The notes under the pieces are model-generated. The model was given only the letters and a program-made list of their open reading frames with translations, did not search any database and was not told the DNA's origin. From an uncultured candidatus Porisulfidus sp. (GTDB taxonomy: Bacteria; Pseudomonadota; Gammaproteobacteria; Poriferisulfidales; Oxydemutatoraceae), in the NCBI GenBank assembly GCA_965215125.1, contig OZ244052.1, positions 1,664,001 through 1,728,000 on the forward strand: a stretch of DNA of 64,000 nucleotides, read 5' to 3'. This document shows positions 61,104-62,371 of the stretch, piece after piece. The position numbers and the translations under genes are program-made. Every line of letters begins with the position of its first letter. Position 1 is the stretch's first letter.

Positions 61104-62371
61104 GGGAACTATATAGTTAACTTGACAAAGAAATGTTAAATTATATCAATGCAAACCCATAGAACAATTAGATACCATTTATATCCGGCGACACAGAAAA
61201 AACACCGGCAATTATATGGCACAGCAGGCGCATGCCGCTATGTCTGGAATCACTTTGTAGCCAAGCTGAAGGACGAATACGAGTATTACGGCGAAAGCCG
61301 GTTTAAATTCTTCACCCTAGGCAAGCAATTTACGACATTAAGAAAGTATTGCGACCAGTGGTTGCAAGGTTATTCCGCTTATATCGTCAAATCGTCATTA
61401 CAACCGATAGAGATAGCATACAAAGGATTTTTCAAGGGCAACAACGGATTGCCGAAGTTTCAGGGGAAATATAGGCATAGCCCGTCATTCCCGATCAATT
61501 ATCAATCGGCAAAGATATCAGCTTCTCACTTGTATATACAGAAGCTAGGCTGGATGAAGTTTGCCGGTGGCGATAGGTATAAAGGTGAGAAGTTTGTATC
61601 CGGTCAAGTCAAGTATGAATGTGGTAAATGGTATGCATATATCATCTATGAAGTGGAAGTGCCAAGCAGGTCGCATCCAGCGGTAGCAGTAGGACTAGAT
61701 AGGAATTGTGGTCAGGTCGCATTGTCGGACGGAACGATGTATCACCTGCCCGACTTAAAGCGTAAGGAGGCAAGGCGTAGGCGTTATCAGCGAATGGTTG
61801 CTAGACAGGTGAAGGGGAGCAACAGGCGCAAACTAGCAAAACATAGGCTACGGAAAGCGTATCAAGCGGAGCGGTTTGCGAGGGCGAATTGGTGTCATCA
61901 AACCAGCCGGTTAATAGCAGACCAATACGACATTGTGTATATGGAAGGATTGAATACAGCCGGCATGACGAAGTCGGCGAAAGGGACGATAGACAACCCG
62001 GGTAAGAATGTGAGGGCAAAGTCAGGTTTGAACAGGGAGATACTAAAGAGTGGCTGGTATAAACTGGAGCAATGCTTAAGCTACAAGGCCTGTATAGAAA
62101 AGGTCAATCCGGCCTATACGAGTCAAACCTGTAATCAATGCGGAAGCGTAAATAAAGTAAACCGTAAGACCCGATCAATTTTCAAGTGTCGGCATTGCGG
62201 ACACGAGGACAATGCGGATGTAAATGCTGCATTAAACATTTTGGCGGCTGGGAGTGCTGCAACCGGATGTGGAGACGGCGACAGTGGCAACACAAGTCGG
62301 TCAATGAAGCGTCAAAAAGATAGGGTGGCAAGGCAGGCTAAAAAGTCTGTCAAGTTACCTATATAATTCCC
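61104..62371 (+). mobile_element. Non-autonomous TIR-bounded element carrying only tnpB (IS1595-like ends inferred)
   Basis: Left end GGGAACTATATAGTTAACTTGACA (61104-61127) and right end TGTCAAGTTACCTATATAATTCCC (62348-62371) are 22/24-identical inverted repeats; no transposase inside. Confidence 0.8.
61149..62366 (+). CDS. tnpB: RNA-guided endonuclease TnpB
   Basis: N-terminal YHLYP…GACRYVWN; RuvC-I VGLD, RuvC-II YMEGL, zinc finger CNQC…CRHC, RuvC-III NADVNAALNI; KSGLNREIL. Confidence 0.95.
   Translation: MQTHRTIRYHLYPATQKKHRQLYGTAGACRYVWNHFVAKLKDEYEYYGESRFKFFTLGKQFTTLRKYCDQWLQGYSAYIVKSSLQPIEIAYKGFFKGNNGLPKFQGKYRHSPSFPINYQSAKISASHLYIQKLGWMKFAGGDRYKGEKFVSGQVKYECGKWYAYIIYEVEVPSRSHPAVAVGLDRNCGQVALSDGTMYHLPDLKRKEARRRRYQRMVARQVKGSNRRKLAKHRLRKAYQAERFARANWCHQTSRLIADQYDIVYMEGLNTAGMTKSAKGTIDNPGKNVRAKSGLNREILKSGWYKLEQCLSYKACIEKVNPAYTSQTCNQCGSVNKVNRKTRSIFKCRHCGHEDNADVNAALNILAAGSAATGCGDGDSGNTSRSMKRQKDRVARQAKKSVKLPI

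Follow-up and report, generated by a model that had tools for sequence, protein, structure and literature searches.

The stretch of DNA considered here (the window) comprises 64,000 nucleotides of contig OZ244052.1 (positions 1,664,001 to 1,728,000; GenBank assembly GCA_965215125.1) from an uncultured gammaproteobacterium, Candidatus Porisulfidus sp., and contains, at positions 61104-62371, a 1,268-bp element that is bounded by terminal inverted repeats (TIRs) and carries a single gene, its only long open reading frame (ORF), which encodes the RNA-guided nuclease TnpB (Table 1). The present analysis is concerned primarily with the right end of this element, where the 3' end of tnpB, the TIR and the predicted scaffold of the TnpB guide RNA (omegaRNA) appear to coincide. 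As far as can be judged from its sequence, TnpB is intact: the catalytic residues D184, E266 and D357 and the zinc-finger cysteines C328/C331/C347/C350 are invariant in an alignment with 8 relatives, and the three Pfam domains HTH_OrfB_IS605 (PF12323), OrfB_IS605 (PF01385) and Cas12f1-like TNB (PF07282) all score above the cut-off. The protein passes the NCBIfam model for guided TnpBs (guided_TnpB, NF040570; score 198.9 versus a cut-off of 100) and fails the IS200/IS605-specific model (IS200_TnpB; 162 versus 425); a search of plasmids returned only relatives of at most 36% identity, annotated as TnpB or insQ.

Table 1. Features of the tnpB element and its immediate flanks, in window coordinates
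Feature	Position	Strand	Comment
Left flank octamer	61096..61103	.	Degraded target-site duplication; 5/8 match to 62372-62379
Left TIR	61104..61127	+	24 nt; 22/24 match with right TIR
tnpB	61149..62366	+	405 codons; RuvC D184/E266/D357 and CxxC...CxxC zinc finger conserved
omegaRNA stem 1 (predicted)	62244..62260	+	62244-62247 pairs with 62257-62260; GGGAGU in loop; RNAalifold and pair counts
Pseudoknot 5' strand, stem 1 loop (predicted)	62250..62255	+	Pair counts; hexamer kept in two reading frames
Stem 2 (predicted)	62266..62313	+	62266-62270 with 62309-62313; encloses stem 3
Stem 3 (predicted)	62274..62302	+	Extension capped by GCAA in the window copy
Stem 4 (predicted)	62320..62362	+	Two-tier hairpin; 3' strands 62344-62351 and 62354-62360 in or abutting right TIR
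Right TIR	62348..62371	+	24 nt; last 5-6 nt (62366/7-62371) form the predicted pseudoknot 3' strand
Guide segment (predicted)	62372..62387	+	Opens with the right-hand target-site duplication

The ends of the element are defined by comparison of its copies. The genome, a single 2.22-Mb contig that is 99% complete, harbors 5 full copies (100, 97, 85, 84 and 78% identity) and 2 internally deleted ones, which together fix the right boundary, and contigs from public DNA runs, which part ways at 62372/62373, confirm it; none of these contigs spans the whole element, so that no empty site was seen among them. The right flank (62372-62760) is part of a gene family with many repeats, and since its first 81 nt have no match in any relative, no unoccupied allele could be recovered from the congeneric genomes. 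Among the 37 right ends from this genome and 31 related loci, 15 are accompanied by perfect 8-bp target-site duplications and 5 more by duplications with 7 of 8 matches.

So which transposase could move an element that encodes none? An IS605-type element was considered and dropped given the 24-nt TIRs, the 8-bp duplications and the absence of a Y1 transposase gene: a search with PF01797 yielded no matches in this genome and was positive in 6 of 14 control genomes. A more plausible candidate is a resident 1,297-bp insertion sequence (IS) of the IS1595 family, present in two copies (L043 and L044), one with a perfect 8-bp duplication, and assigned by Pfam PF12762 and NCBIfam NF033547 (186.5 versus a cut-off of 75). 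The TIR of this IS is identical to that of the tnpB element at 21 of 26 positions, and even closer matches are found in relatives: the TIR of the window element is closer to that of L133, an IS copy in a congener, than to that of the resident IS1595, the two being almost the same, and equally close are the TIRs of L127 and L020-L025 and, in the Pseudomonadales genome, those of the IS1595 copies and the tnpB element L042. More generally, the IS1595 TIRs of relatives match the TIR subfamilies of the tnpB elements in the same genome, and IS1595-family transposases are encoded in all 5 of the relatives' genomes searched, compared with 1 of 14 control genomes. Within about 1.5 kb on either side of tnpB, no IS1595 transposase was detected in any of the tnpB loci fetched, and a tblastn search of all gathered loci with the resident transposase matched L043 and L044 only. 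On this evidence, the element would be, at most, a non-autonomous IS1595 derivative, with TIRs and 8-bp duplications of the IS1595 type and no transposase of its own, and the enzyme that mobilizes it is likely a DDE transposase of the IS1595 family, encoded at another place in the genome and acting in trans. Two of the relatives (G001, G002) also contain many copies of a second, very small IS1595-family element (L136, L140, L185-L189), a 753-bp sequence with a gene for a 226-aa transposase, a different TIR and 8-bp duplications.

The TIRs of the IS1595 type are found on TnpBs of about 37% identity or more and not on those of 30% or less. In a quick IQ-TREE phylogeny of TnpB, the TIR-bearing proteins all fall on one side of a branch with 100% support, together with L073 and L075, for which the right ends were not recovered, and the association between TIR and tnpB must therefore be old and stable. 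This is what could be expected if, as proposed in an earlier note on this DNA, tnpB is an integrated component of the element rather than accidental cargo.

The same note, made from the sequence of the window alone, suggested an omegaRNA scaffold at the right end, and its description of the sequence motifs holds in every particular: the hairpin strands GCGGC (62244-62248) and GCTGC (62256-62260) enclose the loop GGGAGT (62250-62255), GGATGTGGAG (62265-62274) and TGAAGCGTCAA (62305-62315) flank a GCAA tetraloop (62287-62290), and ATTCCC (62366-62371) is the final hexamer of the element, the boundary being the one delineated by the genomic copies and the diverging contigs. The segment 62240-62371 folds with a minimum free energy of -42.2 kcal/mol (z-score of -2.73 relative to shuffles), and nested-only folding of this segment by itself selects the pairing between GGGAGU and AUUCCC. 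In the fold, the last stem-loop incorporates most of the TIR, as had been anticipated, with 62323-62329 paired to 62354-62360 and 62332-62339 paired to 62344-62351. The earlier note also viewed stem 2 as a compensatory variant of a stem that is common at the 3' ends of tnpB genes; a stem of this kind does exist in the distant relative L122, and there is a third variant in L111. A permissive Rfam scan of 60700-62700 retrieved no omegaRNA family, only two tRNAs and one chance match. The possibility that the right-end hairpin is a transcription terminator was dropped because no terminator-like site was found in the right end; a sigma-70-like site is likewise absent there.

The comparative evidence comes from 74 homologous right ends (73 distinct), of which 37 originate from genomes, all of them uncultured gammaproteobacterial metagenome-assembled genomes labelled Candidatus Oxydemutatoraceae, Porisulfidus, Thiotrichales and Pseudomonadales, and 37 from metagenome contigs (L099, which is the same as L098, was left out); base pairs were counted on MAFFT alignments, that is, on alignments constructed independently of the structure. 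For the first 37 sequences, RNAalifold recovers stems 1-3, in which 7 of the 16 pairs persist although both partners have changed, and when the pseudoknot is added, 99.0% of the cells are paired versus 88.7% in shuffles. In the complete set, stem 1, stem 2 and the pseudoknot together are 97.5% paired, with a covariation score of 0.371 versus 0.132 in shuffled alignments (0/500). Considered separately, stem 1 is 99.0% paired, with GC in 38 and CG in 32 sequences at one pair and GC/UG swaps as well; and stem 2 is 98.9% paired, with GC 49 and CG 24 at one pair and UG 40 and GC 24 at another. For stem 3, pairing is complete (100%), and double-sided changes are seen at 4 of the 7 pairs.

The critical part of the prediction is the pseudoknot, for which the earlier note had proposed covariation between loop and terminus across homologs as the test. 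Such covariation was found: in the pseudoknot alone, there are 18 doubly changed cells compared with 4.0 +/- 1.6 in shuffles (0/500), and the covariation score is 0.213 versus 0.102 +/- 0.011 (0/500). Altogether, 95.4% of the cells are paired in the proper register, as against 6-77% when the partner strand is slid by 1-3 columns, and the loop pentamer pairs with the last 5 nt at all five positions in 62 of the 73 distinct sequences, compared with 1.4% for a shuffled fixed pentamer. Most of the variation is concentrated in the fifth pair (alignment columns 14/212), which is AU in 46 sequences, CG in 12, GU in 8, UG in 3, GC in 1 and unpaired in 3, and, to a lesser extent, in the fourth pair (columns 13/213; AU 67, GC 2, GU 2, unpaired 2). 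Of the six pairs originally envisaged, five are well supported, and the sixth (62255-62366; UA 56, UG 6, unpaired 11) is weak. The loop follows the end of the element, such that UUCCC is matched by GGGAA or GGGAG, GUCCC by GGGAC and GCCCC by GGGGU. When these states are mapped on the TnpB tree, the C-G state is seen in the earliest-branching TIR group (L074, L076), the A-U state has emerged from a C-G background in two clades that are not each other's sisters, and the clade of L071 and L072 alters two pairs at once; by this informal count, which combines the end and loop states with a quick tree, at least three independent double changes would have to be postulated. Furthermore, among distant relatives without TIRs (25-30% identity), 20 of 33 possess a hairpin following RuvC-III, with the loop GGACU and the complementary AGUCAC about 78 nt downstream, so the geometry of the pseudoknot is older than the TIR clade.

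Stem 4 required a different approach because MAFFT failed to align it across the TIR subfamilies, and it was therefore assessed by folding, one sequence at a time, the 53 nt that precede the terminal pentamer. In these folds, a hairpin of two tiers is formed, with 3' strands provided by the inner part of the right TIR and with upstream arms that vary by TIR subfamily; in 63 of the 73 distinct right ends, the 3' strands of helices take up 8 or more of the 20 nt between positions -27 and -8. The mirror sequence at the left end is less stable, with a mean of -8.2 versus -13.5 kcal/mol at the right end, the right end being the more stable one in 56 of 65 cases (Wilcoxon p = 1.6e-9, with kin that are not independent). 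Across the homologs, then, both the pseudoknot and stem 4 change along with the TIR subfamily in a geometry resembling that of the ISDra2 omegaRNA, which supports the view that the 3' strands of both the pseudoknot and stem 4 come from the right TIR and that this TIR is, as the earlier note put it, a structural part of the guide scaffold.

Given that the tnpB ORF overlaps the predicted scaffold, the constraints on RNA and on protein have to be disentangled. In most of the relatives (L012-L040), the ORF runs through the entire scaffold and ends inside or beside the TIR, and in the window copy, the stop codon (62364-62366) lies within the TIR. The conserved peptides G-R-G-G and K-R-Q overlap conserved RNA motifs, and conservation alone therefore proves nothing; third-position entropy is 0.70 in the scaffold region versus 1.61 upstream, a comparison that, with only 3 usable codons, carries little weight. 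More telling is the reading frame of the loop hexamer: in 43 of the 67 ORFs examined, all of these 43 intact, the hexamer is in register and encodes Gly-Asn/Ser/Thr/Val, and in 17 it is one base out of register and encodes Leu-Gly-Met or Arg-Gly-Leu. Therefore, the constraint appears to be on the nucleotides, not on the protein. Beyond residue ~366, the tail of TnpB differs among relatives in both length and sequence, it bears a 1-nt insertion in the copy L002, and it is probably dispensable. The idea of the earlier note that the same DNA serves as protein C-terminus, RNA scaffold and transposase-binding end is accordingly accurate insofar as the ORF literally ends inside the TIR and has to be toned down with regard to the protein, to which this stretch probably matters little.

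Several derivatives of the element were encountered in the course of these comparisons. Two kinds of internally deleted copies in this genome resemble miniature inverted-repeat transposable elements (MITEs): L006 (G000:C1:1627104-1627691) is 588 bp long and keeps the last 212 nt, and L007/L009 (G000:C1:967273-967677), of which L007 keeps the last ~139 nt, has its deletion joint, in L007, just upstream of stem 1. L006 and L007/L009 alike retain the entire predicted scaffold, and the joint of L007 (61407->62234) recurs in the public DNA contigs. Such MITE-like copies could be a source of extra guides for TnpB acting in trans. There is also a remnant of ~72 bp (G000:C1:1174941-1175012) in which two TIR-like ends point towards each other with hardly any DNA between them. 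The copy L003 of this genome and L013 (G001/G008) represent one insertion, with the same flanks and the same duplication, in two genomes of the genus, and L013 is thus an orthologous, inherited copy.

Assuming that the guide begins with the first base of the flank, the transposon-associated motif (TAM) of the empty site is the DNA immediately 5' of the duplicated octamer. An asymmetry of the flanks is indeed seen at this position. Among the elements with good ends, defined as those with a duplication of at least 7/8 and at most 4 TIR mismatches (36 of the 74 elements), a purine precedes the left duplication on its 5' side in 36 of 36 (A 18, G 18), compared with a pyrimidine in 18 of 36 at the mirror position on the right and with a purine in 9 of 20 transposase-carrying IS1595 copies that have perfect duplications and were oriented by their gene. 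The Fisher p-values are 4e-7 against the mirror position and 1e-6 against the IS1595 copies, with the caveat that kin are not fully independent; without L013, whose flanks are common to L003, p = 1.4e-6. In the subclade of the window element, 7 of the 8 independent insertions have T-A as the two bases at this place. The purine asymmetry resembles the footprint of a TAM, and this inference from one position is the least secure part of our account. Two elements from different subclades and contigs, L060 and L067, share the same 8-bp duplication within differing flanks, which might be due to chance or hint at a target preference.

Taken together, these observations lead us to consider it quite probable that the element is a non-autonomous IS1595-type TIR element with tnpB, whose right end, the TIR included, encodes the omegaRNA scaffold. 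A number of facts weigh against this interpretation. In 11 of the 73 distinct sequences, the pseudoknot does not pair at all five positions: two are pseudogenes in which the ORF stops prematurely (L019, L039), the end of L037 is degenerate, the terminal C is missing from L020 and L057, an altered TIR end is combined with an unaltered loop in L058, L064 and L059, and in L055, L062 and L116 only 4 of 6 positions pair. Both strands of the pseudoknot are subject to other constraints as well, namely transposase binding and ORF overlap, so that most of its cells, being invariant G-C, are uninformative either way; the shuffle statistics are inflated by kinship, and three of the six pairs hardly vary. 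The target duplication of the window copy itself is degraded to 5/8, the purine signal involves one base only and could have some cause that we have not considered, and the expression, processing and 3' end of the RNA are predictions. Finally, the cut-and-paste mechanism of DDE transposases already leaves a break in the donor, which makes the benefit from TnpB less obvious than in IS605 (as discussed in PMC13565253).

Several of these facts can be turned into explanations of a different kind. The complementarity between loop and terminus might be a by-product that involves no pseudoknot, with the loop kept for the sake of Gly-Asn/Ser and the terminus for transposase binding; the invariant G-C pairs, the second function of each strand and the 11 broken cases are all compatible with this possibility, which we nevertheless regard as highly improbable because the hexamer persists in two different reading frames, altered TIR ends (UUCCC, GUCCC, GCCCC) are accompanied in several clades by corresponding changes of the loop, and the same pairing of a loop with the 3' end exists both in the TIR-less relatives and in the solved ISDra2 RNA. 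It also seems unlikely that the hairpins of the right end play some other role, such as transposase recognition, stabilization of the tnpB message or termination, with the scaffold stopping before the TIR. The end point of the omegaRNA is, to be sure, a prediction and TIRs are transposase sites by definition, but the left end, which is bound by the same transposase, lacks the matching upstream arms, the right end contains no terminator-like site, and an internal guide would vary among copies, whereas 62316-62371 is conserved or covaries; besides, the scaffold of IS200/IS605 TnpBs reaches the transposon boundary according to PMC10711439. Hardly credible, finally, is the notion that these elements are relics that display an inherited structure without acting on their own target sites, so that the flank asymmetry would reflect the target preference of another transposase. 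The degraded duplication of the window copy, the several relatives that are pseudogenes and the resident IS1595 TIR, only 21/26 identical, would all fit, but many copies have perfect duplications and intact ORFs, the copies within this genome show 78-100% identity and have given rise to deleted derivatives, the transposase-carrying IS1595 copies show no purine bias (9/20), and an orientation-specific bias is not expected from a symmetric pair of TIRs.

The interpretation of the right end as an omegaRNA-coding region can be laid out as a chain of events. The last ~128 nt of the element (62244-62371) would encode a scaffold with the architecture of ISDra2, in which GGGAG (62250-62254) pairs with UUCCC (62367-62371) to form the pseudoknot, stem 2 encloses stem 3, and the inner right TIR contributes the 3' strands of stem 4. 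The guide would consist of the flanking DNA from 62372 on, its first 8 nt being the target-site duplication; we predict the segment 62372-62387 as the guide on the strength of the ISDra2 geometry, the repeat boundary at 62371/62372 and the purine in 36 of 36 insertions at the TAM position. Were such an RNA made, the TnpB loaded with it would cut the unoccupied target site, reading the TAM immediately 5' of the duplicated octamer; since the element ends in a C, the occupied site would not be a target. This line of reasoning suggests a broader conjecture, one that we offer as possible and still rather doubtful: in a bacterial clade of TnpBs that are the sole cargo of IS1595-type TIR elements, with guides that start with the element's own 8-bp duplication and insertions that are purine-adjacent in a fixed orientation, RNA-guided cutting of empty sites might decide which insertions persist.

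If the TAM footprint is genuine, it would be natural evidence for TnpB-driven retention outside the scarless IS605 and IS607 systems, and it bears on the question of whether RNA-guided nucleases help DDE transposons at all, which is raised in PMC13565253. In practical terms, the flank asymmetry would offer a cheap computational read-out of TAMs for TnpBs that reside in TIR elements, and the compact scaffold (about 104-130 nt in most relatives) could be of interest for the engineering of TnpB-based editors. Natural variation by itself indicates that the scaffold and the transposase-binding end occupy the same 24 nt and drift together, and IS1595 would join the DDE families on which TnpB rides.

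As for the neighborhood, two tRNA genes are located on the minus strand at 60827-60912 and 60947-61017, with 86 nt between the nearer one and the element's left end, and there is a terminator-like hairpin at 61029-61046. The downstream ORF (62465-64000, plus strand) is a member of a very large family of repeated genes; in each of 5 congeneric genomes, short segments of this ORF have matches at dozens of sites. Beside an IS1595 copy (L043:2430-2560) lies a member of a family of ~130-bp repeats, with well over 100 copies of 72-94% identity across the 2.2-Mb genome, which is unrelated to the tnpB element.

How does this arrangement compare with the known systems? In the ISDra2 omegaRNA, as described in PMC10097598, a 116-nt scaffold comprises four stems and a pseudoknot in which positions -5 to -3 pair with -103 to -105; the latter are held in the loop of stem 1 (-116..-111 with -91..-86), and stem 2 (-84..-81 with -35..-32) is long-range. 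The present scaffold, as predicted, resembles this structure in having stems 1-4, in the pairing of the stem 1 loop with the nucleotides directly before the guide, and in the overlap with the 3' end of tnpB up to the right end of the transposon; with ~128 nt here and ~104-157 nt in the clade, it is also of similar size. The fact that the right end, the scaffold and the gene overlap is established for IS200/IS605 (PMC10097598, PMC13565253), and so is the termination of the scaffold at the transposon boundary in the TnpBs of this family (PMC10711439). However, members of the IS200/IS605 family, going by the description in PMC13565253, have no TIRs and no target duplication, rely on a Y1 transposase and recognize a fixed target/TAM motif, in contrast to the 24-nt TIRs and variable 8-bp duplications of the element analyzed here, which resides in a genome without Y1 and has an ORF that extends through the scaffold into the TIR.

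A further parallel is provided by the six branches of DDE-associated TnpBs with inverted terminal repeats, some of them solo TnpBs that apparently are trans-mobilized, which were reported by Altae-Tran et al. (2023, PMC10691335). In these branches, too, TnpB is flanked by inverted terminal repeats shared with an element that encodes a DDE transposase, and its 3' end is near the transposon end; one of the six may be the clade described here. With respect to the families involved, IS630 is named in the main text of that article, and ISL2, IS630 and IS1031 are named in a review (PMC13565253). We did not find a link between TnpB and IS1595 in the search listings and article passages covered, and the name IS1595 is absent from the main text of PMC10691335; nor was an analysis of pseudoknot or TIR covariation seen in the portion of PMC10691335 consulted. 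The Fanzors that reside in TIR transposons are relevant as well: their scaffold has been predicted to include the TIR (Yoon et al., 2023, PMC10711439). Like the element in the window, those with Fanzor1 and Fanzor2* are often non-autonomous, with the nuclease as the only cargo, as that article describes them; unlike it, they are eukaryotic or viral, a pseudoknot was reported to be absent in Fanzor1, and the target duplication is counted within the scaffold (PMC10711439), whereas the 8-bp duplication here varies in sequence and therefore can only be guide. The principle that a transposon end is incorporated in the guide scaffold is already known for IS605, IS607, Fanzor and the DDE-linked TnpBs, and what appear to be new are the link to IS1595, the covariation for a pseudoknot formed by the last bases of the TIR, and the asymmetry of the flanks. 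The IS1595 insertion sequences themselves (L043/L044, and L133, L127 and L137 in relatives) share the TIR family and the 8-bp target duplications with the tnpB element and differ from it in their content: they encode a DDE transposase (NF033547) and no tnpB, whereas the element has tnpB and no transposase.

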